Numbered from the stretch's first letter, positions 3,008 to 63,744 are shown. The stretch: 64,000 bases of DNA from an uncultured Dehalococcoidales bacterium (GCA_964428725.1 CAYRYW010000002.1:27733-91732), one strand, 5' to 3'. The notes: a model not told the origin generated them from the letters alone. Program-made: numbers and translations.

Positions 3008-3403
3008 ATGTTAAAGGGTACATCTGGTCGAGAAGTCGTGTTTCATATCCAGGATGGCAAGCAGCACTTAATCTCTCCTCCTCCAGGTTGGGAGCGCGGA
3101 GAGGTGAGGAGCGATGGTGCTGCTTGGGTTAACAGGAAGAAGTCGATGAGTGTCATTGCGAGCATCTCTGTTGAATCAGATGGCAAGCACTGGCTTCATG
3201 TGTCTTGTGCACATTTTAGAAGGATGCCGACCTATGAAGAGATGGCGATGGTGAAGAATGTTTTTGTCGGCAGAGACAAGTACGCGATCAGCGTGATGCC
3301 TCCAACCGAAAAGCATGTGAATATTCATAGGTACTGCCTTCACTGGTGGTCCTGCATGGATGGGCATCCGCTTCCGGAGTTTTCCTCTGGCGGAACCATC
3401 TGA
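3008..3403 (+). CDS. hypothetical protein (His/Cys-rich)
   Basis: 131-aa ORF; AAGGAGACGAAG SD-like upstream. Confidence 0.5.
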   Translation: MLKGTSGREVVFHIQDGKQHLISPPPGWERGEVRSDGAAWVNRKKSMSVIASISVESDGKHWLHVSCAHFRRMPTYEEMAMVKNVFVGRDKYAISVMPPTEKHVNIHRYCLHWWSCMDGHPLPEFSSGGTI

Positions 3404-3418: not shown

Positions 3419-3435
3419 CGCGAACTCAAGTTCGC
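3419..3435 (+). repeat. palindromic hairpin motif copy 2/12
   Basis: CGCGAACTCAAGTTCGC 15 nt after stop of 3008..3403, directly abutting a promoter. Confidence 0.7.
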
Positions 3436-3445
3436 AATATTCATG

Positions 3446-3474
3446 TTGACAAAAGAATAACACGGTTGTAATTT
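3446..3474 (+). promoter_or_regulatory. sigma70-like promoter TTGACA-N17-TAATTT
   Basis: tgTTGACAaaag...ggttgTAATTT, 10 nt downstream of hairpin motif. Confidence 0.45.
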
Positions 3475-4645: not shown

Positions 4646-5056
4646 ATGAGAGTACCAAAGAGGTTCATACCTGGTTTCCCTAGTTGTCGGTTCAAGTGGT
4701 TAGAGAACAAGCTCCGGGATCTGCACTTGAAGCTGTTCCGGGGGTATTACGATGTTTTCATCCCTCCTTCGATGACAAACGGAGGCAAGGGGGTTTATAT
4801 CTGGAATGGCGGCCCTGAGATGACTTCCGATGAGATAGTCAGTGCTCAGCCTTTCACAGGCATGGGAGTGGATTGTCCATGGGAGTTCGTGTCTAGCGAT
4901 GGCACCGAGGAGACCTCGGACGATCTGTGTGTCCAGATAAGCAAGAAATGGCAGGCGTATTTCCTAGCGATTGGACAGCCAGGGGAAGAAGAGCGGTTGG
5001 CCGAGATAAGAGAGATGTCGGATCGGGCGCTCAAGCTCGTGAGGGATCGAGACTGA
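4646..5056 (+). CDS. hypothetical protein
   Basis: 136-aa ORF, TGATG overlap with next gene. Confidence 0.5.
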   Translation: MRVPKRFIPGFPSCRFKWLENKLRDLHLKLFRGYYDVFIPPSMTNGGKGVYIWNGGPEMTSDEIVSAQPFTGMGVDCPWEFVSSDGTEETSDDLCVQISKKWQAYFLAIGQPGEEERLAEIREMSDRALKLVRDRD

Positions 5057-5364
5057 TGGCCTACCGATCTGTTAGGAAGAAAAGGTTACAATCCATCCTC
5101 GGAAACGGCGGAAGCGATCTAGACAGCAGGGATGCGTCTATAAAGTCGATAAGAAAAGCGTTGCGTAAAGGTCTTATAAAAAGGCCGAGCAGGTGTTCGT
5201 ACTGCAAGCGTATCCCAGGTGTCGACGCTAAGGGAAATCCCAAGATAGAGGCTGTGCATCTGAAGGGGTATGCTCCAGAGCACCGTTTTGATTTTGAATG
5301 GTTGTGTGTAAGTTGCAGGTCCAGGGCCGTGTGGGCAAAGAAGAGGAAAGTTCAAAATGGATAG
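5056..5364 (+). CDS. CxxC...H...EHR...CVSCR zinc-ribbon protein (paralog of 11272..11685)
   Basis: Motif C-x2-C-x3-G-D-x2-GN-KI-x-A-H-x-KGY-x2-EHR-D-x2-W-CVSCR shared with 11272 ORF. Confidence 0.5.
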   Translation: MAYRSVRKKRLQSILGNGGSDLDSRDASIKSIRKALRKGLIKRPSRCSYCKRIPGVDAKGNPKIEAVHLKGYAPEHRFDFEWLCVSCRSRAVWAKKRKVQNG

Positions 5365-7440: not shown

Positions 7441-7986
7441 ATGGAAAAGGAGGCGGTAATGGACCAGAAATTTATAAGTTTCATGCTTGAAAGACTAGGC
7501 GGGGAAGCGGCTGCACGGGAGGAGTACGAGAAGGCTCGTCCGGTGGAGATTGCCTTTGAGCTACCCGGCGAAGTGGTCACGATGATCGACAAGCAAGCTA
7601 GCGAGAAGGGTGTAGCCAAAAGCGAGGTCGTGGAGACGGCTGTGAGGGCATACGATGCGAGCGACAGAGCGCCTAAGAAGAAAAGACTGAATCTTGCTCC
7701 GGTTGAGAAGGTTATAAACGACGAGTGCGTTCTCAGGGTTTTGACTATCCAGACGGAGGGCGGCGGATCTGTTTTCATGACAGCTGTTCAGGTGGCTGAT
7801 TGCATTGACCACCTCGACAGGAACACCGCGAGGTCAACGCTGGATAGGCTGGTGCACTTCGGTAAAGTCATGCTTGACAAGAGGGGTCGCACGAACGAGT
7901 ACAAGATCAATCCTGAATACGTGAGGACGATTGATGTTCTGAGGGACGTTGTTGCCGGTGTCCTTAATGGAGAAGGTGAGTCCTGA
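7441..7986 (+). CDS. putative transcriptional regulator, ribbon-helix-helix N-terminus + winged-helix C-terminus
   Basis: GEVVTMIDKQASEKGVAKSEVVETAVRAY resembles CopG/Arc RHH; C-term RSTLDRLVHFGKVMLDKRGRTNEYKI wHTH-like. Confidence 0.45.
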   Translation: MEKEAVMDQKFISFMLERLGGEAAAREEYEKARPVEIAFELPGEVVTMIDKQASEKGVAKSEVVETAVRAYDASDRAPKKKRLNLAPVEKVINDECVLRVLTIQTEGGGSVFMTAVQVADCIDHLDRNTARSTLDRLVHFGKVMLDKRGRTNEYKINPEYVRTIDVLRDVVAGVLNGEGES

Positions 7987-10626: not shown

Positions 10627-10643
10627 GCGAACTTGAGTTCGCG
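10627..10643 (+). repeat. palindromic hairpin motif copy 3/12 (TTGA-loop orientation)
   Basis: GCGAACTTGAGTTCGCG 6 nt after stop of HicB-like gene. Confidence 0.7.
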
Positions 10644-10933: not shown

Positions 10934-11275
10934 TTGATGGCTGGTTGTAATGGTTGCGAGCACGGGAAAGAAACGTTCAAGGTCGATGTCGTAGGCACGG
11001 TCGTTTATTGCAAGAAAAAGGGCAGGTCCGTGATTCCTGAGTTGTTTAACAATTGCCCTTCTCGTTCTACCATGGAGGGCAAGAAAGTCGCCAGGAGGGT
11101 GTTTCCAGACGAGAATGTGCCGTGCGATAATCCGTTTGATGAAGTGAAGCGTCTTGAGGGTCTTCTCAGGAATGCGAAGCGTGAGAATACCAAATTGCTG
11201 GACATGATAGGCAAGATGCGGGGCGCGAGCGCCGTAGTGATCAAAGCGGCTGATAAGGTATTGGGGGCGGGGTGA
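10934..11275 (+). CDS. hypothetical protein (Cys-containing)
   Basis: 113-aa ORF, GTGA overlap downstream. Confidence 0.45.
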   Translation: MMAGCNGCEHGKETFKVDVVGTVVYCKKKGRSVIPELFNNCPSRSTMEGKKVARRVFPDENVPCDNPFDEVKRLEGLLRNAKRENTKLLDMIGKMRGASAVVIKAADKVLGAG

Positions 11276-11685
11276 GCGAGCACAACAAGAGCGGGGAAAA
11301 ATGGGGAAGGACAGCTACGAAGGCGGCGGCTGTAAAGACGATCTTCGAGGCGGTCAGAACCGGGCGCATTATTCGTCCGGATACCTGTTCACAGTGCGGT
11401 GAAAAGCCGGGACTGGACGCGGTAGGTAATTCAAAGATTCAGGCAATACACACCAAGGGTTATGAGTTCGAGCACAGGATGGACGTGGTCTGGATGTGCG
11501 TGAGCTGTAGGAATAAATTTGCGTGGATAGCCAGGAGAGAGCGAGAGAACGAAAAGTGCGACATCTGCGGGGAGCCGACAAAAAGGGGAGAAGGCGAGCC
11601 CCGGCTGACACAGGTGAACGGAGAGGAACACGACAGTTATCACTCCATCTGTTTCGATTGCTATTTGCCTGGCGGATATGGCTGA
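11272..11685 (+). CDS. CxxC...AIH.KGY.FEHR...CVSCR zinc-ribbon protein (paralog of 5056..5364) plus second CxxC pair
   Basis: Shared motif with 5056 ORF; additional CDICGEP...CFDCY. Confidence 0.5.
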   Translation: MSEHNKSGEKWGRTATKAAAVKTIFEAVRTGRIIRPDTCSQCGEKPGLDAVGNSKIQAIHTKGYEFEHRMDVVWMCVSCRNKFAWIARRERENEKCDICGEPTKRGEGEPRLTQVNGEEHDSYHSICFDCYLPGGYG

Positions 11686-13942: not shown

Positions 13943-14250
13943 TGGATTGTTTTGCTTGCGGATATTCAGACACAGGCGGCGACTTCGTGAGGTGCTGGCA
14001 AGGTGACCGAGAGGGGAAGAGGATCAGCAGAGAAGAGTCGATAAAGGGTTGTAAGTATATAGATTGTACTGGTGAAGAGTGGAGGCACCCGATCCAGATT
14101 GCGCCAGCGGAAAAGGGCGTCAAGGGGACTTTGTATGCGCTCTGCAACGATCATACGATCTGGTCTTATGCAGTGGGGGCCAAGGCGTGGTCGCGAATAA
14201 AGGGGATCCCTCAGCGCAAAAAGGGGGAGGAAGTTGATGGAGCGCGTTAA
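13942..14250 (+). CDS. Cys-rich protein with ALCNDHTIW motif (paralog of 15334..15705 C-terminus)
   Basis: 103-aa ORF; GVKGTLYALCNDHTIWSY vs GDKEVVVALCNDGTTWEL. Confidence 0.45.
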   Translation: MDCFACGYSDTGGDFVRCWQGDREGKRISREESIKGCKYIDCTGEEWRHPIQIAPAEKGVKGTLYALCNDHTIWSYAVGAKAWSRIKGIPQRKKGEEVDGAR

Positions 14251-14261
14251 TAGGGAGACAG

Positions 14262-14843
14262 TTGATGCCTGATGATAAATTGAAAGGTTGCCTTACACCC
14301 GTGGAGGTGCTTGAGAAACTGGGATCGGTTAGTTTCGTGAGGCCAGTGACGGATGACACAGAGAGGTACGCTGAGCAGAGTGGGTGGTTAAGATCTCATG
14401 CTGAGGATATTTCCGTCCTTACAATTGAGCATCTAACCGATTTTTGCGCCCTGGATTGCAAAGCGTGCTCTCCTGGCTGCCCCGGCTGCCCGATTGGGTG
14501 CGAGATAGAGATCCGGGCAATGGAGGGCAAAGGGCTCCGCGTTAGGGTGGATGAGAAGGACGGTACTACTTGCATGACCATGATCCACGGCGGGAAAGAG
14601 CCAGAGCCGTTAAGGTTCGACATAGGCCCTGTCGCCGAAGATACGGACGTTATGATGCTGGTCGGAAACGACTTCCGAATTGTGAAGGCCGGGGACTTGG
14701 CTGATCACGTGAACAAGGTCCGGGATGCCAAGGGGGTTAGCAGGGGTCTGGGTTTGAGCGGAGAGGTGGCCAAGGGGCTCAAGGAGAGCGCCGAGCATAT
14801 CAGAAAAATGGAAGCAAAACGCTGGGTGGGCAATGATGAGTGA
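14262..14843 (+). CDS. hypothetical protein (central Cys cluster CKACSPGCPGCPIGC)
   Basis: 193-aa ORF. Confidence 0.5.
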   Translation: MMPDDKLKGCLTPVEVLEKLGSVSFVRPVTDDTERYAEQSGWLRSHAEDISVLTIEHLTDFCALDCKACSPGCPGCPIGCEIEIRAMEGKGLRVRVDEKDGTTCMTMIHGGKEPEPLRFDIGPVAEDTDVMMLVGNDFRIVKAGDLADHVNKVRDAKGVSRGLGLSGEVAKGLKESAEHIRKMEAKRWVGNDE

Positions 14844-15216
14844 CGAGTTGAAAGTTGGAGACGTGGTCTACGGAAAGTCTACAGAATGGGGATGGAGGGG
14901 GATGGTGACCGGTCCCCCTAGAACCATTACCCGTGAGACGAAGACGTTGTGGATAACCGACGAGGGAACGCCGAACGAGCACAGGTGGAAGAAGGCGGGC
15001 ATGGGTTTGAGTCTCTACGATGACAAGGCGAGAGCCGACAGGAAGATCTACCAGGAGAACAAGGAGATCGGGATATTGCTGTACAGGCTGGGAAAGTTCA
15101 GATTCGACAGGCCCAGAGCCTGCACTCCAGAGGTGGCAAATCTTCTGCGGTTGGCTGTTAAGATCCTGTCGGATGAGGAACTGTCAAAGGAAAAGGCAGA
15201 CCTCTCGCCCAAGTGA
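14833..15216 (+). CDS. hypothetical protein (paralog of 7045..7437)
   Basis: 127-aa ORF. Confidence 0.5.
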   Translation: MMSDELKVGDVVYGKSTEWGWRGMVTGPPRTITRETKTLWITDEGTPNEHRWKKAGMGLSLYDDKARADRKIYQENKEIGILLYRLGKFRFDRPRACTPEVANLLRLAVKILSDEELSKEKADLSPK

Positions 15217-15247: not shown

Positions 15248-15264
15248 CGCGAACTTGAGTTCGC
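15248..15264 (+). repeat. palindromic hairpin motif copy 4/12
   Basis: CGCGAACTTGAGTTCGC 32 nt after stop, 7 nt before TTGACA. Confidence 0.7.
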
Positions 15265-15271
15265 AATTCTG

Positions 15272-15300
15272 TTGACAAAGCATCATGCGGCCTGTAAATT
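15272..15300 (+). promoter_or_regulatory. sigma70-like promoter TTGACA-N17-TAAATT
   Basis: ctgTTGACAaag...gcctgTAAATT upstream of 15334 gene. Confidence 0.5.
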
Positions 15301-19168: not shown

Positions 19169-19184
19169 CGCGAACTCAAGTTCG
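19169..19184 (+). repeat. palindromic hairpin motif copy 5/12
   Basis: CGCGAACTCAAGTTCG 25 nt after MazG-like stop. Confidence 0.65.
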
Positions 19185-21281: not shown

Positions 21282-21384
21282 TTGGTGAGATCTTCGTAAA
21301 GTCGTGATATGTGTTGATGATTCAATGCTGTTCGGAGCGTAGGCTGATGGAGGAAAACTGTGAAATTGGAAGTTGGTGTCTTCA

Positions 21385-22290
21385 ATGGGTAAAGCAGCTA
21401 AACGTCTAAAGGGTAAGCCAACTGGGCGGATTGCTAATCTTAGGTGTTACGAGACTGTCCATGACATGGTGTGCGCAGGCTATCCGCTGACCGCGATTGC
21501 CAACTTGATACAGGACAAAATGCAAGAGTATCTTGATGTGCCTAAGCAGGCTGTTGTGATGGCCCTTCACAGGTACAGGGAGAGTCTTAAGGATAGCGGG
21601 GATTTGGTCCAGGGTGCAATGCCGAGGGTATTTGTAGAGGCCAAGAAGAAGTTCTCCAACAAAATGCAGGAGCTTGAGCGCCTGGAGGATATGATCCTCG
21701 TGCTCCAGTATCGGATTGATTTGGCCCATGGCGTGGAGCGGATAGCGAACGCAGTTGACCCTGGGGTCGACAGGATGACGAGGGAATTCACGAATGTGGT
21801 TGCGCGAATGCACGACATCAAAATGGATCTTGGACTTGTCGGCTCGCGGGACATCGGTACGATCACAGTCTCTGCGGAGAGACTGGAGGAAGTACGACTT
21901 AAGTACGGGGACAATGCAGCTAAGGCATACGCCGATCCTGTATCTCGAAATAGAGTTCTGGCAGCCATTGGTGCGATACGGAAGGTGTCGGGAGATAAGT
22001 CAGTCGAGCGACTTGCTACTGAGATGGGGGTTTCCGATCCTGACGGTGCTGTGATTGACGCTGAGTTTACGGCCAAAGAAGAGTCTGTCGCGATTCCTGT
22101 CGCGAAAGACGCCGGAGATGTCGCGAAAGCCAAGGGCAAGCCAGTGAAGAAGACCGCGAAAAAGCCCGCGAAGAAGAAGGCCAAGATCAAGCCAGCTGAC
22201 AAGCCAGTGGCGAAAGAGGCGCCGGTCGAAAAGCCTGCCCCAGTTTCAGTTCTCCCTCCTGGGCCAGAGAAGCCGAAGATAAAGAGGTGA
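21385..22290 (+). CDS. putative terminase small subunit
   Basis: Immediately upstream of TerL; N-terminal HTH-like segment, coiled-coil middle, K/A/P-rich basic tail; position analogous to T4 gene 16; no motif proof. Confidence 0.4.
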   Translation: MGKAAKRLKGKPTGRIANLRCYETVHDMVCAGYPLTAIANLIQDKMQEYLDVPKQAVVMALHRYRESLKDSGDLVQGAMPRVFVEAKKKFSNKMQELERLEDMILVLQYRIDLAHGVERIANAVDPGVDRMTREFTNVVARMHDIKMDLGLVGSRDIGTITVSAERLEEVRLKYGDNAAKAYADPVSRNRVLAAIGAIRKVSGDKSVERLATEMGVSDPDGAVIDAEFTAKEESVAIPVAKDAGDVAKAKGKPVKKTAKKPAKKKAKIKPADKPVAKEAPVEKPAPVSVLPPGPEKPKIKR

Positions 22291-22298
22291 GCTTAGCT

Positions 22299-22315
22299 CG
22301 CGAACTCAAGTTCGC
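22299..22315 (+). repeat. palindromic hairpin motif copy 6/12
   Basis: CGCGAACTCAAGTTCGC 8 nt after stop of putative TerS. Confidence 0.7.
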
Positions 22316-22330
22316 AGATGGGGATGACTG

Positions 22331-25300
22331 TTGATAGTTACGACACGCAAGGGGAGAAAGAAGTCTGTAATAACCAAGGAGGAGCTGGCGGCCCATGCCG
22401 GTGACATGGTTGACGCCCTGACAGACGCAGAGCTAGAGCTGGTGATGGGCCTGATAGACGAAGATCCGGAGATTCAGATAGAGCACCACAAGACGATGCG
22501 CGGGCACTTGTACCACCGAGAGCCTGTCTCTATGGAGCAATTCATAGAGGATCCACATTACCTGGGCGAGTCTTGCTCGACTCTCTACCCAGAGCTTAAG
22601 AAAGATCTCATAGATCTGTTTGATTATCCATTCAGAGAAGTTGTGCTCACAGGCGGAATTGGAGTTGGCAAATGCCAACGAGGGGTGAACGAGCTTTATG
22701 ATCCGGTCATGGGGAGAAGGCTAACTGTAGAAGATGCTGCATCTTTTGGCAAGTACAAAGCGTGCGCCACGTTCAACAAGGATGAGCGGAAGACAGTGAG
22801 TGGAGGGTGCAAAGTATTCGAAAGCGGAAGAAAGAAGGCGGGGGATCTCGTGCTTGGGAGCGGGAAGAAGATTGGACTAACTCCTGATCACCCTGTCTTG
22901 ACACCGTGGGGATACAAGCCAGTCGGAGAGCTTAAGAAGGGGGATCTTGTTGCGACTTCGCGAGAGATGCCCTTACCTGAGATGCCTTTGGCTATTTCTG
23001 ACAATGAGGTCAAGTGGGTGGGCTACATCTTGGCAGACGGCGGTGTGACAACGTCTCGGATTGTCTTCGTAAAGGGTGTTGATGAAATAATCTCAGAGTT
23101 TTGGTCTCTGTCGGAATCGCTTGGCGGGGATGTGAAGGAAGAGGATGTGGATGCTGATGCGCGGAGGGTTCGTGTCCTGGGGCTTGATCGCTTGAGGGAT
23201 AAATTTGATCTCAAACACAAGTCCAAGGACAAGAGAGTTCCGAGTGAGTTCTACGGGCTAGACAATCGCCAGCTTGCCTTGTTGCTGAATCGCATTTGGT
23301 CGTGTGATGGATGGTTCTGTCGCAGGGATAAGAAAAAGGGCAACTGGGAGATTGGAATATCCTTAGCCAGTGAGCCGTTCGTGAGGGATATTCAACAGCT
23401 CTTGCTTCGTTTTGGGATTCACTCTCGGATGCGTCCGCGTGAGATGGGGTACACGCACAACGGAGAGAGGAAGCATAGCGATGCTTGGTCTTTGCAGGTG
23501 CTGGGTAGGGATGAAGTTATTAGGTTCTTGAATTCGATTGGAAACCTCGTAGGCAAGGAAGAAGATTGCGAGACTGCGCGGCGCGAACTTGAGTTCGTAA
23601 AGGGCAACTCGAACGTGGACATTACCCCCATGAACAGAGAGGTGATGACCAGGGTTCGTAAAGAGATCGGGCCGGTGCCCAAGAAGGCGTACTGGCCGCG
23701 TCCGGCGCAGGGCTCGCAAATGGGCCACGGGGTGTTCTTGAGATTCGCTGAGGCGTATGATCTTCCCGAGTGGTGCTCCTGGTGGGGTGGAGTATTCTGG
23801 GATGAGGTGGAATCGTATGAGTGCGGCGATGAGTTAGAGCCTGTGTATGACATCGAGGTTCCTAAGACGAGGAACTTCTCAGTGCACGGGGTTATCGTTC
23901 ACAATACGTTCGTGCTCTCAATAGCCATATGCAGGGTGCTTTACGAGCTGTCTTGCTTAGTGAATCCCCAGAAGACTTTCGGCCTGTCGTCGGGTACGGA
24001 GATGGTTATTCCGTTGATCTCAAAGAACCTTCCGCTGGCGCGTGCTGTCATGAAGACGGCGGTTGACGACAAGATCAAAGAGTCTCCGTATTTCATGAAC
24101 GAGTTCTCTCCGAAGATCTCCAAGGAAGCCACGCTGTTTCCTCATAACATCCGAGTGATCATAGGGTCGTACGGTAGTGAGCGAGTTCTTGGCTCGAACG
24201 TTTTCTGTGTTGGGCTTGATGAGTGCCTAATACTAGAGGCAGGTTTGACAACGGAAAGAAAAGGTGTTAGGCGATCCATGACAGTTGGAGATCTTCTGGA
24301 AATGAGTCCAGAGGACGCTGAAAACTGCAAGGTTGTAGGTTTTGATCATGCGGAGAATAAGCTCAAGGCTGGATGGTGGAGAATCAAGAAGTCCACGGTT
24401 CAAGAGCTTGTTGAGATCAGGACTGCGCTGGGGTCGGTATCGCCGTCGAGAAAACATCCCGTTCTTGTCCAAAGAGGAGACTGGCTTGTTTACGTTCATG
24501 CGGAGGATGTCGTCCCTGGCGATTTTGTTGTCATGGAGGATCGTGATGCCAGCGAAGGGGCAGACTGTAAGCGAAGAGCAGAAGAAAAAACAATCGGAGA
24601 AGATGAAGGGTCGAGAGTTATCGGAGGAGACGAAAGAGAAGATGAGATCTGCGCAAAAGGCGCGGTACGAGAATGGGTACGTCAATCCGATGAAGGGGAA
24701 GACTCAGTCAGAGGAGACGAAGAAGAAAATCAGCGAGGCCCAAAAGGGGAGGAAGTTCTCCGAGGAACATCGGCGGAAGATCGGAGAGGCGAATCGCAGA
24801 AGGAAGATCTCGAAAGAGACGCGGGAGCGAATGAGCGAGGCTCAAAAGAGCAAGGCACCTGCAAGCGAGGAGCACAGACGGAAGATAAGCGAAGCCAATA
24901 CAGGCAGGAAGCATACGGACGAAGCTCGTGCGAACATGAGCAAGGCTCAGAAGGGTCGCGCCCTGTCAGAGGATCACAAAAAGAAGCTGTCAGAGGCGGC
25001 CAAGAAGCGCACAGGAGAGGCGAATCACTTCTACGGAAAGACTCACTCCGAGGAGGCGCGGAAGAAGATGAGAGAGGGTCAGGCGGGTGTACAGCGGAAG
25101 CCTCACTCCGAAGAGACAAAGAGAAAGATGAGCGAGTCTCAAAAGGGGCGCAAGTTTTCCGAGGAGACGAAGGAGAAGATGAGAAATGCTGCGAAGCGTC
25201 GTGCAGCCGATCCAGAGTGGCGAAAGAAGATGAGCGAGTCGTCGAAGAGGGGCTGGGCAGAGGGCACCATTGGCCAGAACATGCCACCCCGGCACGGAGA

Positions 25301-28300
25301 GGCGAACCCTTTCTACGGGAAGAAGCACACGGAGGAAACGAAGGCGCGTCTGAGCGAGGTTGCAAAGGCGAGAGAACCTCGCGTGCATACGGAGGCGTCG
25401 AAGGATGCGATTTCCGAGGGGAACATGCGGGCTATCAAGGACGGGACGAGGACGTACAAGTTCCGTGCGACGTCTCCGGATGGTGGGGTTGTGCCTTGCC
25501 GGACAGAGGCGGAGAAGAGACTAGCCGATCATCTTTGTTCTCAGGACGGGGTTGTTTCTGTTGTCGGCGAAGACAAGATGCCGTTTGTGGAGTACGATTT
25601 CAACGGCCAATCCAGGATAACGGTTGCGGACTTCATGGTAACAGCAAGCGACGGTCGAATCATTATCGTAGAAGGGAAGGCGCAGGGGTCGCTATACGGA
25701 GAGAGAGAGAGGGCTCGGTTTCTTGCTACATGGGAGCACTGCAAGGCGTGCGGGTTCGACATGATTATATCATTCAACCATGCAAGGGACCCCGATCTGT
25801 CTCTCGGTCCATTTGTGACACAGGAATTTGTGGAGATGGTGAAACAGGGGTTTGTTCCCATGTCACTGCTTTCGGACAATCGTGCCACTGGGGTTGCGGC
25901 AAGGCGAACGGGCTTTGGGCATCACGGGAAAAGAGTAGCTGGAGGAGACAGAAAGTATCTGTTCAGCACTGTGTCTCCGGACGGGGTGATCGTCAATTGC
26001 AGGACAAGGAACAGCCTGCGTGTAGCCGATCATCTTTGCTCTCAGAGCGGGGTTGTTTCTGTTGTAGGCGAAGACAAGATGAGTGCTATTTATCACAAGG
26101 TGAATGGAGAGGGGCGCCAGACGGTTGCAGACTTCATGGTTACTCGCAGCGACGGACATATTATTTTTGTGAATGTAGAGAGCAACACGTTTGCAGAGAG
26201 CAAGGGCCTCTGTCATCGTATGAATGCAATGTGGGACCATTGCAGGGCTGTCGGTTGCAGTTTCATGATGGTATTTGCCGATGCGTCCGTGGATCCAAAT
26301 GTGTGGGAGGGTCCGTTTGTCACGGATGCGTTTGTCGAGCGCGTCATGGGCACAGGGGTGATTCGACAAGGATTAATGGCCGATGCCAGAGTTCCTGCGT
26401 TGACGGTGGCGTCTCCGAGCGGGAGCACGATCCATTGCGCGACAGAGAAGGAGATGAGGCTGGCGGAGTGCCTATGTCAGCAAGAGGGCGTGGAGTCCAT
26501 TTCCTCAACAAAGAGGGAGTGCGTGGCGAGGTTCGAGTTCGAGGGGCGGGCGCGAAGGGCTGTGGCGGACTTTATTGTTCTCATGCGGGACGGGAGAGAG
26601 GTGGTTGTCTATTCCATACATGGGACAAACGCGAGGAGCGTATCATCAAGGAGTGCGCTCATGGCTATGTGGGATCACTGCAAAGAGATGGGCATGAGCA
26701 TGTTGCTAGCCCTCAAGGAAGCGAGGAATCCAGATCTGTCCCTTGGTCCGTTCGTGACGCAGGAGTTCGTGGATGGGTATATGCGCGGAGATGCCAAGAG
26801 GAGTGCGCTCATAGACAAAAGGCCAAAGGGAAGGAGACCATCTCCGTTGAAGGGCAGGAAACTTGGTCCTCGCAAGAAAATGACGAACTTGAGTTCGCAG
26901 GAATCCGCCCCGAAAGAACACATGTCGAAGAAATCCCTGTCGGTCTTTGCCTCGCGGAAGTAGTGTCCGTTTCTGCCCTGCCCGCTGAACAAACATATTC
27001 TCTATGCACGGAGCATCAGACGTTCATCGCTGATGGGTTCGTGGTGCATAATACGAACTTCCCGCCGAACCGTAAGAGCCAGCAGATCACTACAGCTATG
27101 GGCCAGAAGAAGACAAAGGCTCACTTTGATATTGTGGAGAAGGTCTACCGGAACTTGGTCCGGCGAATAAAGTCCAGGTTCCAGGTTGCAGGCGGGGATT
27201 TCCCTGGGATGATCATCTTGGCTTCTTCGGCTGCTACCCTGGACAGTTTCACTGAGCGGAAAATCCGGGAGAGCAGGCTTGATTCCTCTGTCTTCGTCCG
27301 AGATCACACTCAGTGGACGGCCAAGCCTGGGTCTAACTTCTGCGGGGAGAAGTTCTGGGTTCTGTGTTCGGCGTCCTCTATGCGCTCTAGGATAATCGGA
27401 GACGATGAAGTGAAGCACTTCACCGACGAGTGGCTGGAGGAGAACGATTCTTTTTTGATCGACATTCCGGTTGAGTACAAGTCGGACTTCGAGACAGACA
27501 TTGAGAATGCACTAAGGGACCTTGCTGGTATATCTACTCAGGCTATATCGATTTATATCCAGAGGCCCGACGCGGTGGACGCGTGTGTGAGCGAAGAGAT
27601 GGAGCATCCGTTTACTGCGTATGAGTGGACATCCGGGCAGGCCGGGGCGTTCAAGTGGAACATTCTGTGTAACATGTTCGAGCGTCGGCTGCCTGGCGGA
27701 TACACGGAGACAGCGTGGTCCCCCAAGATTAATCCTTCGAAGATGAGATGGTGTCACATTGATACATCTCTCTCGGGGGACTGTACGGGTTTCTGTGTTG
27801 GTCATATAGACAAGTGGGTTGAGGTAGTAAGGCGAGACGGGGACGGGGTTCGTTACACGGACCTGGCACCCTCTTACGTCATTGACGTGATGTTGCGAGT
27901 GAACCCACCGGCTGGAGAGCAAATCTACATGCCGGACTTGCGTCGTTTCATTTACGAACTACAGGCACATGGTTATCAGTTCCTTGGGTTTTCGTCGGAC
28001 ACATACCAGTCGGCGGAGATGCACCAGCAAGTAAAGAGAAGGGGGATTTCTACCCATATCATATCGACGGATACGTCCACGGATCCTTACGATGAGCTGA
28101 AGATGGCGATGTACGAGAACCGGATTACGTACTATCATTATCAGCCATTTATTGAGGAAATCAAAGACTTGGAATATGATCGCAACGTGGGCAAGATCGA
28201 TCATCAGCAGGCCGGGTGTTTTGTCGGAGAGACGCGGATTCCTCTTCTGGATGGAAGCTGCCCTATGATCTCAGAGTTGGATGGGGTGGATACGTGGGTG

Positions 28301-28870
28301 TACTCCTGTACAGAGGGTGGTCGCATTGTTCCGGGCCGAGCAAGGGGTCGATTAACGAAAGAGGTGACCGAGCTTGTGGATGTGGTTCTGGACAGCGGGG
28401 CTGTCGAGAGGTGTACGCATGAGCACCTTTGGATGTTGAGGGACGGGACGTACAAGAAGGCATGCGACTTGGATCCTGGCATTGACCGTTTGATGCCGAT
28501 TGATTTGAATTCTTTTCCGGTTGAGCACAAGGTCAGGCATGTAACTCCTGTTCGCCTTGATAAGCCGGTGGCTGTGTATGACTTAGAGGTTGAGGAGTAT
28601 TCCAACTTCTCGCTTTCTTCTGGAGTGTTCGTCCACAACTCCAAAGACGTTAGTGACGCAGTAGCGGGTGTGGTGTATGGTTTGATGAAGACATCGACCA
28701 AAATCCCTGCGATTGTGGGCGATAGTAAAAGTGCCGCTGTTGAAAACGAATACGACTGGGTCTCACCTATGATCCAGACGGACGGCATAAGCGCCGAAGA
28801 GCTAAGGGACATGAAGGACGCGGGAGATACAGACGTGTCGGAGTATGTCCCTATTGTGTTTGGAGACTGA
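22331..28870 (+). CDS. terL: terminase large subunit precursor interrupted by three inteins
   Basis: 2179-aa stop-free frame. Exteins: Walker A GGIGVGK|T, Walker [10 protein letters not shown]-terminal RNase-H-like nuclease ([21 protein letters not shown]|[10 protein letters not shown]). TTG start assumed and uncertain. Confidence 0.8.
22673..23905 (+). mobile_element. TerL intein 1 (411 aa) in P-loop, LAGLIDADG homing endonuclease domain
   Basis: Starts Cys after GVGK, block [18 protein letters not shown] motifs GYILADGG and [10 protein letters not shown], ends VYDIEV...[11 protein letters not shown]|T. Confidence 0.8.
23581..23597 (+). repeat. palindromic motif copy 7/12, inside intein-1 endonuclease coding region
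   Basis: GCGCGAACTTGAGTTCG encodes ARRELEFV in frame. Confidence 0.6.
24546..26963 (+). CDS. homing-endonuclease-like protein nested in intein 2 in the +1 frame, with own RBS
   Basis: GGAGGA 5 nt before ATG 24546. About 9 tandem NUMOD3 repeats ([22 protein letters not shown]). Then 3 tandem ~140-aa PD-(D/E)xK-like domains, first intact (E.R...VADFMV...IVEGK), two degenerate. Confidence 0.7.
26883..26898 (+). repeat. palindromic motif copy 8/12, at 3' end of nested endonuclease gene
   Basis: ACGAACTTGAGTTCGC; read as NDELEFAG in terminase frame and MTNLSSQ in endonuclease frame. Confidence 0.6.
28217..28639 (+). mobile_element. TerL intein 3 (141-aa mini-intein) in nuclease active-site motif
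   Basis: [13 protein letters not shown]..., block [10 protein letters not shown], ends [24 protein letters not shown]|S. Confidence 0.75.
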
Positions 28871-28871
28871 T

Positions 28872-31718
28872 ATGGGATTTACCGAACTAGTCAAAGGGCT
28901 CTTCAAGAGGGACAGGGATGTCCAGGCAGCAGCTATTGCCAAGGGTACGGCGATTGCTACCAACGTCTCTGTTGACAGTATGGATCCGAGTAGCGGGACA
29001 GAGGGCGTCAATGCCCTTCAGAGCCAGCTAGCCATCGAGCAAGATCTGATTTCTCGTTACATAGATTACGAGAATATGGACGACTATGTTGAAACCAGCG
29101 CAGCTCTAACGGTGTTCGCGGATGACTCTACTATTCCAGATACCCTCCATAGGAAGACCGTGTGGGCTACGTCGGAGGATCGGCTCGTTCGCGATCTTCT
29201 GAACGACATGCTTCACAGGATGATCCGTATCGAGGAGGACGCCTGGGTCACAGTTAGGAGCTTGGCAAAGTACGGGAACTTGTACGGGGAGGTTCTGACC
29301 ACAAAGGGCGGGGTAATAGGTATCAACTGGCTTCCCGCACCGTCGATACGTAGAATAATAAACAGCAAAGGCGTCCTTCTTGGGTTCATCCAAGATGTGT
29401 CTGGGCAGTTCAACTACGATGCGGGGGCGCTTGTAGAGGCTCTAGAGGCTGGCAAGAAGCCCATTCCTGAAAACGAGAACAACTCTGGGATTACCTTCTT
29501 CTACCCTTGGGAGATGGTCCATTGGCGGCTGCGCTCCAAGCGGCTTCGCTCTCCTTACGGGTACGGTGTTCTAGACAGTTCACGGTGGATCTGGAAGCGT
29601 CTCCAGTTGATGGAGGACACAGCCCTGGTTCAAAAGCTGACAAGGGCTCCGGGTCGGTATGCGTTCTACGTGGATACCGGAGACTTGCCGCCTAAAGAAG
29701 CGGTGGCTCTTGTCCGCAAGGTTAAGAGCGGATTCAAGAAGAAGCGTCTGATCGATCCGAGCACAGGCCAGCTGGATCTTCGCAATAACCCGCTGTGCCT
29801 AGCGGGTGACACGGAAGTTCCTCTCCTTGATGGGAGTAAAAAAACGATAGTCGAGATGGCGGAAGCGTTCGACAGGGGCGAGGAGCAGTGGGTTTACGGC
29901 GTTGACAGGAAAAATAACAGCAAGATGGTTCCTGGCAAGGTTGTGTGGGCAGGTCAGACACGTAAAGACGCTGAGCTAGTGCGCGTTACATTAGATAATG
30001 GCGAGTCTTTCAGGGTTACTCCTGATCATAAGTGCATATTGAGAAGCGGAGATCTGAAGGATGCCCAGGACTTGGTTCCTGGCGAATCCTTGATGCCGTT
30101 GCGTAGGACAATCTCTTCTTTTGAGAAGGGAGACACGATGGACGGGTATGAGAAGGTCTACGATCCGTCCAGCAAGAAATATGTGTATACGCACAGGATG
30201 GTTGTGCGGGAACTAGGGATGAAGGAAAAAGGCAAGCTCACTCATCACAACGCAGGGAAGCTGAATAACAATCCTAGTTGCCTTGAGAGCATGACATGGA
30301 GAGAGCACTCGGAGCATCATTGTAAACTGGGGCAAATGGGCGGTGCTAAACTCAGAGAGCTTCGCAAGACGGATAAAGCTCTGGATCAAAAGTTACGAGA
30401 TGCAGCGTCGAGGACGCTTAAAGAGCGTCACGCTGATCCTGAGTGGAAAAAGAGGAATGCTGAGGCAGTGCGTCGGAGTAACATCGAGCGTGATAGTGGT
30501 AGGTACATCCGTGCCTATAACGATTCTGACAAGCATGTAGAAGACAACGCGCAGAGAAGCTCCGCCATGAAGGCGTTCTGGACCGATGATGCCAGGTCTG
30601 AGTATTCGGAAACTAGGACGATCAGCTACTCGGATGTCTTCATTTCGGCGCTAGAGGAATTCGTCAGGAGCAACCCTGGGTCGAGCGCAGACGATGTGGC
30701 AGACTTCGTGTCTAGCGATTCTGTTGCTCTAGGTCTTCTCAATGAGGGAAGTTGCCGCGTGATAAAGAAAGCCCATCGTCATTTGCTTTTAAAGGCGTAT
30801 AGGGCGCATGGCTATTCTAACTTCAGCGAGTTCAAGGAATCTGCGTGTTCCTACAATCACAAAGTTGTGTCTGTTGAGCGTCTTTCCGAGAGAGAGGACA
30901 CGTATACGCTGACTGTTGACTCGTGTCACAACTTTGGCCTTTCTTCTGGGGTTGTAGTTTGCAACTCGCCATCCGAAGATTTTTGGATTCCTACCCGTGG
31001 AGGGAAAGATTCCACAAGGATCGAAGTCATCTCTGGGCCAGATGTTCAGATGATGGACGACGTGGAATACTTCCAAGGCAAGCTGGTTACATCGACGACG
31101 GTTCCGAGGCGCTTCATGGGTCTTGGGGATCCTGGTGACTCTACGAACATGATGGCGTCCCAGGATGACGTGAGATTTGCCCGTGCCTGTATGAGGCTCC
31201 AGCGTGAGTACGTGCAGGGGCTTGAGAAGGTTGCCCGTATACATCTCGCGGCGTTGAACATCGATCCCGATTCTGTGCCTTGGCAAATCAAGATGACGGT
31301 TCCGTCTGCGATCTTCGAGATGCAGCAGATTGAGGTTATGAATGCCCAAGCTGGGCTGGCGTCTTCGCTGTCTGATTACATGAGCAAGCCTTGGATTCTC
31401 CAACGCGTGTTCAACTTCACGAGAGACGATGCCCAGGCTATGATCCAGGCGAAACGCGATGAGGAGTCCGGGGATGTTGTCCGGGAAGCCGAAGCGCAAG
31501 CGAAGGTCATGAAGTTATTCCCCGAGCTTGAGGGCGCACTCGACGACAAAGACGGGGGAGGGAAAGAAGAAAGCGTTTCCCCTAAGAAGGCACCTATAGC
31601 GGAGAACGAGGACAGGAGGCTTCTTCGCTCCTTGAGCAAGAAGGCTAACGCGATTGAGCGTTCTGTCACTCGGATCAATAAAATGTCACGGATCAACGGG
31701 TCCGGAAAGAGGAGTTAG
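28872..31718 (+). CDS. portal protein (T4 gp20-like position) precursor with one intein
   Basis: GGAG SD 7 nt before ATG, 1 nt after TerL stop; ~950 aa follows TerL; extein resumes SPSEDFWIPTRGGKDS... Confidence 0.65.
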   Translation: MGFTELVKGLFKRDRDVQAAAIAKGTAIATNVSVDSMDPSSGTEGVNALQSQLAIEQDLISRYIDYENMDDYVETSAALTVFADDSTIPDTLHRKTVWATSEDRLVRDLLNDMLHRMIRIEEDAWVTVRSLAKYGNLYGEVLTTKGGVIGINWLPAPSIRRIINSKGVLLGFIQDVSGQFNYDAGALVEALEAGKKPIPENENNSGITFFYPWEMVHWRLRSKRLRSPYGYGVLDSSRWIWKRLQLMEDTALVQKLTRAPGRYAFYVDTGDLPPKEAVALVRKVKSGFKKKRLIDPSTGQLDLRNNPLCLAGDTEVPLLDGSKKTIVEMAEAFDRGEEQWVYGVDRKNNSKMVPGKVVWAGQTRKDAELVRVTLDNGESFRVTPDHKCILRSGDLKDAQDLVPGESLMPLRRTISSFEKGDTMDGYEKVYDPSSKKYVYTHRMVVRELGMKEKGKLTHHNAGKLNNNPSCLESMTWREHSEHHCKLGQMGGAKLRELRKTDKALDQKLRDAASRTLKERHADPEWKKRNAEAVRRSNIERDSGRYIRAYNDSDKHVEDNAQRSSAMKAFWTDDARSEYSETRTISYSDVFISALEEFVRSNPGSSADDVADFVSSDSVALGLLNEGSCRVIKKAHRHLLLKAYRAHGYSNFSEFKESACSYNHKVVSVERLSEREDTYTLTVDSCHNFGLSSGVVVCNSPSEDFWIPTRGGKDSTRIEVISGPDVQMMDDVEYFQGKLVTSTTVPRRFMGLGDPGDSTNMMASQDDVRFARACMRLQREYVQGLEKVARIHLAALNIDPDSVPWQIKMTVPSAIFEMQQIEVMNAQAGLASSLSDYMSKPWILQRVFNFTRDDAQAMIQAKRDEESGDVVREAEAQAKVMKLFPELEGALDDKDGGGKEESVSPKKAPIAENEDRRLLRSLSKKANAIERSVTRINKMSRINGSGKRS
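29796..30965 (+). mobile_element. portal intein (390 aa) with HNH endonuclease domain
   Basis: CLAGDTEVPLLDG (block A), TPDHKCIL (block B), HNH region KLTHHNAGKLNNNPSCLESMTWREHSEHH, C-term CHNFGLSSGVVVCN|S (penultimate Cys not His). Confidence 0.7.
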
Positions 31719-31721
31719 CAA

Positions 31722-32579
31722 ATGCCATTTATCCAAGGATCCAAGCTGGACAAGTATTACCGTGGCAGCCTAGCGCACCGGAGTCATGCCGTGGACGTGG
31801 CTGTAGCGGAGCGATTCGAGGGCAAGAAAGCTCAGGTCATGGTAGTCCAGGAAGACTCGGCGGTAGTGGTTATGGATAACAGTCCTGTCCTGATCGTTGG
31901 TTACGAGATGGACGGGGACATTGCCAAGATCACAAAAGAGTCCATATGTAAAGATATACCCGTGATAGAGAGCGGTAACATGGATGCTTTTGTAGCAGGT
32001 GAGCTTAGGGACATTGCGAAGAAGATGGCAATGGGCGAGGACGTTTCACGAACTCAAGTTCGCGAGCTGGCATCTGTGATGGAGCCGGGCGGGGACTATT
32101 GGCTCACTGGCGTTTTGTCCAAAATAGACGAGTCTACTGAGGACTCTGATTGGTTCAAAATGTACGAGGCCAACCAGGAGAAGGTCCGCACTGCCATGCA
32201 CGGTAGTATTAGGGCTATCGAGGGGGCGGTCCCGAGTACAAAATACGCGAGCATTTCCCCTGGAAAGCTCCATGCGTTTGAGGAAGAAATCAGGGAATCC
32301 ATGGGTGTCATATCGTCCGTTATTCAAGGAATAGTTGACGAATGCGACGCGATCATGTTTGATCAAAAGGAAGATGAGTTCTTTGGTGCCACCTGTGAAT
32401 CGTTGAAAGTTGAAGCGCAAGTCCTCACGGGCTTGCTCGGCAAGGCAGAAAAGTTGATGCGTTCTGAAGATATGGAGCGCATGTCCGTGGCACATGACAA
32501 ACTTGCTGGGCGAGCAAAACAAATGGCAGTCGTTGCCGCTTACCTCAAAAAGCGCAGCGCAAACGAAGTGAGGAGCTAG
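31722..32579 (+). CDS. head-module hypothetical protein
   Basis: 285-aa ORF between portal and scaffold-like gene. Confidence 0.5.
   Translation: MPFIQGSKLDKYYRGSLAHRSHAVDVAVAERFEGKKAQVMVVQEDSAVVVMDNSPVLIVGYEMDGDIAKITKESICKDIPVIESGNMDAFVAGELRDIAKKMAMGEDVSRTQVRELASVMEPGGDYWLTGVLSKIDESTEDSDWFKMYEANQEKVRTAMHGSIRAIEGAVPSTKYASISPGKLHAFEEEIRESMGVISSVIQGIVDECDAIMFDQKEDEFFGATCESLKVEAQVLTGLLGKAEKLMRSEDMERMSVAHDKLAGRAKQMAVVAAYLKKRSANEVRS
32047..32064 (+). repeat. palindromic motif copy 9/12, inside coding sequence
   Basis: CACGAACTCAAGTTCGCG encodes SRTQVRE in 31722 frame. Confidence 0.6.
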
Positions 32580-37104: not shown

Positions 37105-37136
37105 GGCTTAGCTCACTAGTTTGATCAGAACCCCCA

Positions 37137-37173
37137 GGGCTGGGTCGGGAAAACCGGCTCGGCCCTTTTTTTT
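37137..37173 (+). terminator. rho-independent terminator after capsid gene
   Basis: GGGCTGGGTCGG-gaaaa-CCGGCTCGGCCC stem (12 bp incl. 3 G-U) followed by TTTTTTTT. Confidence 0.6.
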
Positions 37174-39857: not shown

Positions 39858-39874
39858 GCGAACTTGAGTTCGCG
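39858..39874 (+). repeat. palindromic hairpin motif copy 10/12
   Basis: GCGAACTTGAGTTCGCG 3 nt after stop, 10 nt before next ATG. Confidence 0.7.
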
Positions 39875-46895: not shown

Positions 46896-46913
46896 TTCTA
46901 GTGTTGTTCTTGT

Positions 46914-46948
46914 CTGGGGGTCATCGGCCCCCAGGCTTTTTCTTCTTT
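46914..46948 (+). terminator. rho-independent terminator
   Basis: CTGGGGG-tcatcgg-CCCCCAG followed by gcTTTTTcTTcTTT. Confidence 0.5.
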
Positions 46949-46961: not shown

Positions 46962-48314
46962 ATGGCGTTAGACAGGGTCAGAGTACTGAAGATCGAGAAT
47001 CCGTCGACTGGTGGCACGCAGACTGACATTTACCAGACAATGATACGTCCAGAAGAGGACGCGATTGATGTTCGCGGCGTAGTCATTCAAAATGACACGT
47101 CAAACGATGAGACGGTTCTGGTTTCAAGAGATGCGTCAGACAACATGACGTTTCAAGACGGACAAGTTGCAGGTGTAAAGACTTTGGACGACCTGCTCTC
47201 GGCAGGCGGTGATGACGACGATCAAGTGAAGGACAATGTTCCCGTTGGGGAGACATTCATTGTTAAGGAAGAGCATCAGCATATTACCTATGATGAGTTT
47301 ACCGTTGCCGGAGAATATTTGGTAAACGGTGAAGCAGTTGTACTGGGAGGGTATGAAGAAGGTGGAGGGCTTGCAGAACACGCACTTGGTGGGATGTACC
47401 ACACGGAGTCTACTCTAGCGCAGTTGAACGCTCTAGTTTCCGACGCAACCTTGGACACTTCGTCTGCCAGTAGGACGCCGAATGCGCACTCAAGTTCCCA
47501 TGAGAATGGCAATTCTGATGAAATAAGTGTAGCTGGGTTATCGGGAACGCTTGCAGATGATCAACCTCCTGTCGCGCACGCGCTGGGTGGTTCGAAGCAT
47601 ACGTCGGCAACCCTGGCGCAATTGAATGCACTTGTTTCGGATGCAACTTTGGACACTTCGTCTGCTAGCAGAACACCGAGTTCGCATGCCAGTTCCCATC
47701 AGGCTGCCGGTGGAGACGCAATTAAATTAGATGATTTGGCGAGTCCTGACGACAACACGGATTTGAATGCCACAACATCTGCGCATGGGCTCTTGCTCAA
47801 GCTAGGCGGCGGAATAAGTAATTTTTTGCGAGCGGATGGGACGTGGGCACCGCCTACTGCAACACCATCGTTTACTGTGTTTAGTGGTTATGACAGCGCT
47901 GGAGGGACGGCCATTGCAGCTACGTGGATTGATGTGCCTCTTGATACGGAGAATAAAAAAACAAATGGATTTACTCACTCTACGGTGACTAGTCCGGCAG
48001 AAGTGACTATCGATGCAACGGGCACGTATAGGATTGATGTTCAAGTTTCATCTTACATTACGTCAGGAAATGATCGAAGCGAGACAACGATTAGAGTTCT
48101 TGTCGACAGTGGAAGCGGTTTTTCTGAAATAGATGGGACTAGGGCAATTATCTATAATCGCATAGACCCTGAAGGGGGAGGGACGGCTTCTGTTTCACTC
48201 ATTAAGGATTTTACTGAGGATGATATTATCAAGGTGCAAGCGATTAGGAGTGGTGGGACAAGTACCATCAATCTGTTAGCTGATGGCTCAAGGGTTGTTA
48301 TAGAAAAAAGGTGA
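46962..48314 (+). CDS. tail fiber / receptor-binding protein paralog 1
   Basis: Repeats ...LAQLNALVSDATLDTSSASRTP...H.SSH and IKLDDLASPDDNTDLNATTSAHGLLLKLGGGISNFLRADGTWAPP. Confidence 0.55.
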   Translation: MALDRVRVLKIENPSTGGTQTDIYQTMIRPEEDAIDVRGVVIQNDTSNDETVLVSRDASDNMTFQDGQVAGVKTLDDLLSAGGDDDDQVKDNVPVGETFIVKEEHQHITYDEFTVAGEYLVNGEAVVLGGYEEGGGLAEHALGGMYHTESTLAQLNALVSDATLDTSSASRTPNAHSSSHENGNSDEISVAGLSGTLADDQPPVAHALGGSKHTSATLAQLNALVSDATLDTSSASRTPSSHASSHQAAGGDAIKLDDLASPDDNTDLNATTSAHGLLLKLGGGISNFLRADGTWAPPTATPSFTVFSGYDSAGGTAIAATWIDVPLDTENKKTNGFTHSTVTSPAEVTIDATGTYRIDVQVSSYITSGNDRSETTIRVLVDSGSGFSEIDGTRAIIYNRIDPEGGGTASVSLIKDFTEDDIIKVQAIRSGGTSTINLLADGSRVVIEKR

Positions 48315-55784: not shown

Positions 55785-55801
55785 CGCGAACTTGAGTTCG
55801 C
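55785..55801 (+). repeat. palindromic hairpin motif copy 11/12
   Basis: CGCGAACTTGAGTTCGC 3 nt after stop. Confidence 0.7.
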
Positions 55802-63728: not shown

Positions 63729-63744
63729 ACGAACTTGAGTTCGT
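63729..63744 (+). repeat. palindromic hairpin motif copy 12/12
   Basis: ACGAACTTGAGTTCGT between promoter and AAGGAG SD. Confidence 0.65.

Follow-up and report, generated by a model that had tools for sequence, protein, structure and literature searches.

A dispersed palindrome in the intergenic regions, terminase inteins, and a head-region gene of an uncultured T4-like phage as a candidate family of protein-binding sites

Here, we present an analysis of a short palindrome that recurs in a 64,000-nucleotide (nt) stretch of DNA assigned to an uncultured Dehalococcoidales bacterium (GCA_964428725.1 CAYRYW010000002.1:27733-91732; the whole stretch is referred to as the window), with emphasis on the copies that lie within genes. 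The window carries a distant T4-like myovirus, with a gp23-type capsid protein that is ~30% identical to those of cultured phages, as well as portal and prohead protease proteins; its genome has a lytic, T4-like appearance. The terminase TerL is encoded by an open reading frame (ORF) at 22331-28870 (2179 amino acids [aa]) that contains three inteins, inserted in the P-loop, downstream of Walker B, and within the nuclease domain. Intein-1 (22673-23905, plus strand, 411 aa) is a LAGLIDADG intein in the P-loop (GVGK/C ... VHN/T). Intein-2 (24224-27052, plus strand, 943 aa) follows Walker B (GLDE/C ... VHN/T), and its frame stays open across an endonuclease insert; the endonuclease gene (24546-26963, plus strand) is in the +1 frame, has a GGAGG-ATG start, lies within an ORF at 24342-26963, and encodes five NUMOD3 motifs and three tandem nuclease-like repeats. 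Intein-3 (28217-28639, plus strand) is a mini-intein without the motif. Downstream, an ORF at 31722-32579 (plus strand, 285 aa) lies between the portal and prohead protease genes, a position that suggests that its product is a head or scaffold protein.

The palindrome and its copies in the window

The motif is CGAACTTGAGTTCG, or CGAACTCAAGTTCG as the reverse complement, and consists of two 6-nt arms around a non-palindromic TG/CA center. We found 12 exact copies of CGAACT(TG/CA)AGTTCG in the window, compared with 0.06 (12-mer core) and 0.6 (up to two mismatches) obtained from shuffles. By our own calculation, ~0.0005 exact 14-mers are expected per 64 kb, and the three copies in coding sequence are thus far above chance. 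There are no one-mismatch variants in the window, and allowing two mismatches adds a single match, at 47485. The spacing of the copies shows no regularity by eye, and a literature search with the exact motif strings returned only unrelated papers on short hairpin RNAs. The window is ~95% coding, with all genes on the plus strand, and 9 of the 12 copies are intergenic; because these nine fall in ~2 kb of non-coding DNA, the element is primarily intergenic.

Most of the intergenic copies stop 8-26 nt short of a start codon, right before the ribosome-binding site. The copies at 2971-2984, 10628-10641, and 55787-55800 lie 23, 19, and 13 nt upstream of the ATG codons at 3008, 10661, and 55814, respectively, and the copy at 22301-22314 lies 16 nt upstream of the TerL start. 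A copy just 5' of TerL is also present in relatives, which are designated by locus number (L031 at 1565; L030, L032, and L036 at 8036). The copies at 3421-3434 and 15250-15263 are located 11 nt upstream of TTGACA-17-TAATTT and 8 nt upstream of TTGACA-17-TAAATT, respectively, while the copy at 63730-63743 is just downstream of TTGACA-17-TAAAGA, at approximately the predicted transcription start. The copy at 19171-19184 separates the MazG-like and DHH genes, and that at 39859-39872, with a TG center, follows the head-tail adaptor gene. Overall, one copy overlies a predicted transcription start, three precede a −35 hexamer by 7-11 nt, and the others have no sigma-70-like promoter close by. Near-consensus sigma-70-type promoters are found in the early region at 1909-1937, 3446-3474, and 15272-15300 (TTGACA-17-TAAATT or TAATTT); two of them follow the motif by 8-11 nt, and the third is without a motif. 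The motif as a promoter element was considered and discarded, as sigma-70-like hexamers adjoined only 7 of 83 sites.

The three remaining copies are in genes, as the initial annotation had it: intein-1 and intein-2 of TerL and one head-region gene each contain an exact copy. The start positions that it assigned (23581, 26883, and 32047) designate the correct sites and include one to three flanking bases. The first copy (23584-23597, TG center) is in the LAGLIDADG region of intein-1 and is read as C GAA CTT GAG TTC G (RELEF). The second (26884-26897, TG center) is in a linker of intein-2 and, because the TerL frame is open and the endonuclease is in the +1 frame, is double-coding, reading as DELEFA in the frame of TerL and as TNLSS in that of the endonuclease. 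The peptides quoted for these two copies, i.e., ARRELEFVK in intein-1 and ENDELEFAG in the TerL frame, were also correct. The third copy (32049-32062, CA center) is in the ORF at 31722-32579 and is read as CGA ACT CAA GTT CGC (RTQVR). The probability that at least two of three coding copies fall in the TerL inteins by chance is ~0.016, or ~0.024 if calculated by hand with the portal intein added, in what is a post hoc test. The portal ORF (28845-31718, 957 aa) contains an intein at aa 318-707 (nt 29796-30965); this intein matches HNH, has an unusual VVCN/S end, and lacks the motif. Altogether, the packaging genes hold four inteins, three in TerL and one in the portal.

Coding copies in related phages

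With four queries against IMG/VR (capsid protein, TerL extein, endonuclease domain, and intein-1), we collected >70 loci of a clade that spans 35-67% GC. The intein-1 loci were obtained with an alignment query; a single-protein query of viral contigs matched none, and a metagenome scan with intein-1 returned only one 54-residue fragment. The window's clade repeats CGAACTYRAGTTCG or CGAACTCGAGTTCG, while the repeated variants of other lineages are CGAACCYRGGTTCG, CGAACACGTGTTCG, CGCACACGTGTGCG, and CGCACGCGCGTGCG, and some lineages have CGCAC arms. The four-nucleotide spacer between the arms (N4) is uniform, or nearly so, within the genomes examined and differs between lineages. The exception is L024, in which the copies at 3183, 4982, 13415, and 20685 keep the arms CGAAC/GTTCG and have the centers TCCG, TGCA, TCAA, and TCCA. 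Relatives without intein-2 or its endonuclease still hold the full motif family at conserved positions. Among the IMG/VR matches listed, the contigs with multiple copies of the 16-mer were all relatives of the window phage or contigs already identified as such.

The site at 32049, the most conserved of the motif family, falls on identical codon positions in all relatives found (GC 35-67%; protein identity 40-48%, or 38-49% to the full-length homologs). Among the aligned relatives that share RTQVR, 10 of 11 have the identical codons CGA ACT CAA GTT CG(C/T) at GC contents of 44-63% and a protein identity of 42-49%; L001 departs at one base, with GTG as the Val codon, and when L001 is also counted, the motif is still the place where the gene has its longest stretch of invariant nucleotides. 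In more distant lineages, the same codons hold other perfect palindromes, i.e., CGAACCCGGGTTCG (RTRVR), CGAACACGTGTTCG, CGAAATCGATTTCG (RNRFR), and CGCACACGTGTGCG; where a lineage's repeated variant can be defined, the palindrome at this site is that variant or is one base off. All copies in the RTQVR frame have the CA center, because TG would give a TGA stop codon. The combination of identical codons in a diverged protein with symmetric changes of the palindrome shows that selection at 32049 acts on the DNA. We conclude from these comparisons that the nucleic acid is what is selected at this site, with the protein following, and that the site in this head-region gene is ancient and the oldest of the coding sites.

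The intein-2 copy is also widespread. Among 11 distinct intein-2 alleles, from phages with 35-66% GC, nine have an exact copy, the tenth (L102) has a 13/14 copy, and L043 has none. The copies fall into two positional classes. In the C-type position, at the 3' junction of the endonuclease insert and 169-172 nt before the intein end, are those of the window, L037, L038, L025, and L102. The window copy lies 169 nt before the intein-2 end, in the 3' tail of the endonuclease ORF, and the copies of L037 and L038 lie at the same distance with a CTCGAG center. The intein of L025 is an endonuclease-less mini-intein of 180 aa, with its copy at 172 nt and the center flipped to CTCAAG (CTTGAG in the window); the 13/14 copy of L102 (CGAATTCAAGTTCG) is also in an endonuclease-less intein-2. 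In the N-type position, which is a loop ~200 nt from the intein start and ~120 nt 5' of the ATG of the endonuclease, are those of L031, L015, L039, L044, and L040; no shared promoter was found between the N-type copies and the endonuclease ATG. The peptide at the intein-2 copy is ELEF or ELKF, and the copy mostly matches the variant of the resident genome (L039, L040, L044, L037, and the window). As judged from these alleles, the association of intein-2 with the motif is real and old. The two positional classes may reflect two ancestral events only, in which case the nine exact copies are not independent.

The endonuclease is in the +1 frame, with the TerL/intein frame open and without stops, in all eight homologous loci (35-66% GC). 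This out-of-frame layout was noted in L031, L015, and L037-L044, with an endonuclease of the NUMOD3 plus PD-(D/E)XK or Vsr-like type. In the window, residues ~420-820 of the endonuclease (25600-26800) form three tandem nuclease-like domains of ~135 aa with pairwise identities of 40-50%; in L031 and L015, this domain is present once. L031 also has a free-standing Vsr-like endonuclease ORF (14092-14847) downstream of its homolog of the ORF at 31722-32579, in the place expected for protease and capsid genes. The first 20 codons of this ORF contain CGAACACGTGTTCG, which is the variant of the L031 intein-2 and not the main variant of L031, CGCACACGTGTGCG.

The intein-1 copy lies 911 nt inside the intein. 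In an alignment with 22 other loci, two of which are from one contig, the exact motif was present in the window only. L034, L045, and L046 have a 13/14 copy, TGAACTTGAGTTCG, with one synonymous change, while no trace of the motif is present at this position in L047 (60% identical) or in any other allele, such that the motif is absent from 19 of the aligned loci. The motif forms the longest stretch of exact identity between the intein-1 of the window and that of L034, which are 59% identical (62% at the nucleotide level and 40% at third positions); however, based on our own run-length estimate, a 14-nt run is only slightly above expectation. The intein-1 copy is young, and its function is uncertain.

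These comparisons bear on what the initial annotation made of the coding copies. It placed the motif specifically within the mobile parts of TerL. This placement is supported, and for intein-2 the association is real. The motif is not confined to mobile DNA: the head-region gene has a copy, and so does the C-extein of TerL in L142 (2240; the same contig as L061, 5391), where the nuclease domain contains a perfect 16-mer, GCGAACTCGAGTTCGC, and GGELEFAM replaces AGEQIYM. The intein-free TerL alleles that we compared have no internal copy, so that neither intein position carries the motif in an intein-less allele; the C-extein copy of L142/L061, which comes nearest to such a case, is at a different position. 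The suggestion that the motif is tolerated as a peptide is reversed by the data, with the DNA conserved and the peptide following it (RTQVR/RTRVR/RNRFR at 32049 and ELEF/ELKF in intein-2). The homing site of a LAGLIDADG endonuclease is the intein-less extein junction; the motif is absent from the extein junctions of six intein-free alleles and from the spliced junction of the window, and the intein-bearing genome has 12 intact copies, so that a role as a LAGLIDADG homing site is rejected. An insertion scar is rejected as well, as each of the two inteins has a single copy deep within it (at 911 nt in intein-1 and 169 nt short of the intein-2 end) and no border repeats. A CGAACTT half-site at the intein-2 junction (27053-27060; ACG AAC TTC, T-N-F; also in L023 and L026) was considered as the remnant of a target; it is lost synonymously in L024, L028, and L033 and is probably coincidental.

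Candidate explanations for the palindrome

To describe the symmetry of the motif, we used 130 distinct sites with their flanks. Positions 6 and 9 are Watson-Crick complementary in 123 of the 130 sites, and the pair differs by lineage (T-A, C-G, A-T, or G-C). A hairpin that paired these positions would have an impossible loop of 2 nt; the symmetry is therefore that of duplex DNA rather than of a hairpin. The central step is pyrimidine-purine in 124 of 130 sites, there is no pairing on either side past the G/C at −1/+1, and at a homologous intergenic site, the center flips from TG (39859) to CA (L002, L006, and L008). These features fit a duplex DNA site for a putative homodimer with a flexible central step. 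If the motif instead acted as an RNA hairpin, i.e., as an mRNA stabilizer, a processing signal, or a REP-like boundary, with tolerated hairpins in genes, this would agree with a predicted fold of a 6-bp stem with a tetraloop (−5 to −9 kcal/mol), with the placement of most intergenic copies 8-26 nt before a start codon and ahead of the ribosome-binding site, and with the predicted transcript at 63730, which would begin at the hairpin. However, the complementarity of positions 6 and 9 is impossible as hairpin pairing, the loops are themselves palindromic, and G·U is no more common than A·C at −1/+1 (12 sites each). Moreover, both orientations occur within one transcription direction, a weak hairpin in a translated ORF would be unwound, no U-tract follows the motif, genuine terminators look different, and scans of Rfam and for tRNAs gave no match. 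We therefore consider a function as RNA highly improbable. A structured RNA element was discarded as a candidate on the same grounds (6/9 complementarity, palindromic loops, G·U not preferred over A·C, and no Rfam match), and an intrinsic terminator because the motif has no T-run after it and the real ones (37136 and 46912) combine stems of 11-13 pairs with T-runs. The clear intrinsic terminators of the window are at 37136-37166, after the capsid gene, and at 46912-46936.

We favor, with a probability of roughly 55%, the interpretation that the copies in genes are functional and belong to a family of 16-bp palindromes spread over the genome, GCGAAC-TYRA-GTTCGC, which are putative duplex binding sites of a homodimeric protein. 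According to this model, a sequence-specific homodimer would recognize the duplex palindrome (GCGAACTYRAGTTCGC, GCGAACTTGAGTTCGC), as at an operator or a roadblock site. Selection acts on the DNA sequence, and the peptide encoded at an in-gene site adapts to the site. The TerL copies would lie in intein linkers and loops (in one relative, in a surface stretch of the extein) as the least-cost coding places for a fixed string of 14-16 nt, presumably because the late operon (22-37 kb) has almost no intergenic DNA. The acquisition of a copy by intein-2 would predate the divergence of the lineages, and the binder could be encoded by the phage or be a LexA-like protein of the host. Several observations weigh against this interpretation. 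No LexA, S24 peptidase, or clear helix-turn-helix repressor was found in the ORFs of positions 1-22290 (Pfam, PHROG) or in the fetched loci. A sigma-70-like promoter adjoins only 7 of 83 sites, and the placement is mixed, with copies 5' of the −35, on the transcription start, or immediately ahead of ribosome-binding sites. The base at −1 is G in 77% of the half-sites, where actinobacterial LexA boxes have T; all 12 window copies share one N4, none is degenerate, and 12 identical sites without degenerate copies are unusual for a host regulon. L031 and L015 have CGAACACGTGTTCG in intein-2, while their main variant at conserved sites is CGCACACGTGTGCG. Finally, the tolerance argument alone leaves the regular adjacency of motif and endonuclease in intein-2 unaccounted for.

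A specific form of the binding-site interpretation is that the copies are SOS boxes for a host LexA of the Gram-positive type, by which phage genes, including those for TerL and the intein endonuclease, would be tied to the DNA damage state or LexA would be soaked up. The LexA box of Gram-positive bacteria (Bacillus subtilis consensus) is CGAAC-N4-GTTCG (PMC4551915), and that of Streptomyces is tCGAAC-N4-GNNCGa (PMC9380542). All 12 window copies and most variants of the relatives, including CGAACACGTGTTCG of lineage C, fit the former and are dyad-symmetric; L024 varies N4 and keeps the arms, as a LexA-type readout would allow, the 63730 copy overlaps a predicted transcription start, and the scanned ORFs and fetched loci offer no phage-encoded regulator. 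Nevertheless, we regard this form as unlikely: N4 is uniform in a genome but different between lineages, the −1 base is G instead of T, the arms are CGCAC in some lineages, promoters adjoin few of the sites, the genome appears lytic, and the 16-mer is present in multiple copies only in this phage clade among the IMG/VR matches listed. In addition, two scans of 185,579 species genomes, one with the capsid protein and one with a 20-mer that includes the conserved site, returned only chance matches and thus no relative and no clue to the host. A search by tblastn with approximate LexA sequences of Escherichia coli and B. subtilis gave no LexA match.

Dimeric nucleases recognize palindromes, and the motif might accordingly be the recognition site of such an enzyme (PD-(D/E)XK or Vsr-like; the intein-2 endonuclease or a paralog), with cassettes landing and persisting beside it and the variants reflecting escape between competing phages. 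All intein-2 endonuclease homologs found (eight loci and the window), except that of L043, have the motif within ~120 nt of the ORF or at its 3' end; L025 (exact) and L102 (13/14) keep the motif at the empty site, endonuclease-bearing alleles also keep the motif, and the copy in the Vsr-like ORF of L031 is not the main variant of L031. Still, this explanation is improbable, because 12 intact copies in the same genome would mean self-cutting unless protected, the motif family is complete in relatives without intein-2 or its endonuclease, only two ancestral events may underlie the two positional classes, and NUMOD3-type homing enzymes usually read long asymmetric sites. It is distinctly improbable that the intein copies are functionless passengers that arose by chance or hitchhiking and encode an acceptable peptide (ELEF). 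This would suit the intein-1 copy, which is exact in the window phage only, with 13/14 in the nearest alleles and nothing in one that is 60% identical, as well as the decayed intein-2 copy of L102 and its absence from L043. It does not suit the expectation of ~0.0005 exact 14-mers per 64 kb, the fact that the motif is the longest exact run of the two closest intein-1 alleles, or the persistence of the intein-2 copy at two fixed positions across 35-66% GC, where it mostly tracks the resident variant and keeps its palindromy when the center flips. We also consider it quite unlikely, but worth stating, that the palindrome is a lineage-specific address label for a co-evolving dimeric regulator or PD-(D/E)XK-type nuclease, and that selfish elements in TerL (intein-2 with its out-of-frame endonuclease, and free-standing endonucleases) need a copy for expression, tolerance, or mobilization, adopting the variant of the resident or keeping that of the donor (L031 and L015). 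If so, the variants would record an arms race between related phages and the history of mobile-element transfer.

Among the scanned ORFs (1-22290), the only plausible sequence-specific DNA-binding protein is that predicted from the ORF at 7441-7986 (181 aa), which is a weak candidate for the binder. Its N-terminus resembles a ribbon-helix-helix by eye, its C-terminus matches a winged helix (DUF7342, E = 0.0025), and a comparison with the PDB gave weak TubR-like matches (E = 0.2-0.7). The ORF at 21373-22290 (305 aa) directly precedes TerL, where a small terminase gene would lie, and has no family match; it ends in a Lys/Ala/Pro-rich, histone H1-like tail (KKTAKKPAKKKAKIKPADKP...). Such tails are common in actinobacterial DNA-binding proteins, a weak hint as to the host. 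A PDB sequence search with this TerS-like ORF and the ORF at 31722-32579 gave no match, even of a weak kind. The small ORFs at 4927-5364 and 11272-11685 appear by eye to be paralogous and have a common Cys-rich ...C..C...H...C..C motif; a weak PHROG endonuclease match (phrog_2340, E = 2.4e-4) near the end of a concatenated scan was assigned to the latter. A near-identity DNA search of 22000-29000 against cultured phages gave no match, and an exact-protein lookup of the major capsid protein gave no record.

Significance and comparison with known systems

The site at 32049 is a clear example of a non-coding DNA signal that dictates protein sequence, with a palindrome of 14-16 bp fixed or symmetrically changed in a head-region gene across 35-67% GC. 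More generally, the palindromes constitute a family of cis elements with lineage-specific variants, not described before, in a large clade of uncultured T4-like phages, and they link such an element to the inteins and nested endonucleases of the terminase gene. They also serve annotators as a marker of the clade. Should the binder be the LexA of the host, a phage of lytic type would be connected to the SOS state; should it be encoded by the phage, the co-varying sites would be a ready specificity series for the co-evolution of protein and DNA.

Sites of the protein-binding type that are spread along a genome, also in coding sequence and away from promoters, are familiar from two other systems, which the palindrome resembles in these respects. 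The stoperators of Cluster A mycobacteriophages (L5 gp71 sites) are many near-identical sites, also in genes, that block elongation; they are asymmetric, orientation-dependent 13-mers. The centromere or parS-type palindromes of 16 bp (such as N15 and chromosomal parS) are dispersed protein-loading sites that need ParB, and no ParB was found among the ORFs scanned with Pfam. To our knowledge, neither stoperators nor parS are found inside inteins.

The LexA/DinR SOS box (Cheo box) has the same 5-bp arms and 4-bp spacer in a palindrome of 14-16 bp and is bound by a dimer, a resemblance that is one of sequence; phage GIL01 uses the LexA of its host at such a box, dinBox1 (PMC4551915). The palindrome of the window clade differs from it in that the copies are identical, including N4, have G at −1 and, in some lineages, CGCAC arms, are mostly off promoters, and are in several cases in genes. 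For the nested endonuclease, the available parts of published reports describe inteins with an out-of-frame homing endonuclease, either endonuclease VII-like in frame 3 or antisense Vsr/LAGLIDADG (bioRxiv 10.1101/2025.01.02.630785), and fractured genes with Vsr-like free-standing endonucleases (PMC2677866). The TerL intein of the window is similar in that an endonuclease ORF of the free-standing type is nested in another frame while the intein frame stays open; in contrast to the cases in those parts, where no adjoining palindromic repeat is reported, the endonuclease of the window is on the sense strand in the +1 frame and is NUMOD3 plus PD-(D/E)XK-like.

The closest described system is that of the Cluster O mycobacteriophages, which have a 17-bp palindrome, TGTTCGGNNNCCGAACA, in 34 invariant copies, 11 of them clearly in genes, with a function that is unknown (PMC4351075). 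The two systems differ in that the Cluster O arms are GTTCG..CGAAC with an odd spacer and those of the window clade CGAAC..GTTCG, and in that the Cluster O phages are siphoviruses with Mycobacterium hosts; lineage-specific co-varying variants, an ancient in-gene site, and an association with inteins are features of the window clade that were not reported for Cluster O. They have in common many invariant copies of an inverted repeat, mostly intergenic and some in genes, at positions common to relatives. Likewise, the Cluster O repeat is dispersed and dyad-symmetric, its center orientation is unrelated to transcription, and few copies are near promoters, and its authors suggest that it is recognized by a dimeric DNA-binding protein (PMC4351075).

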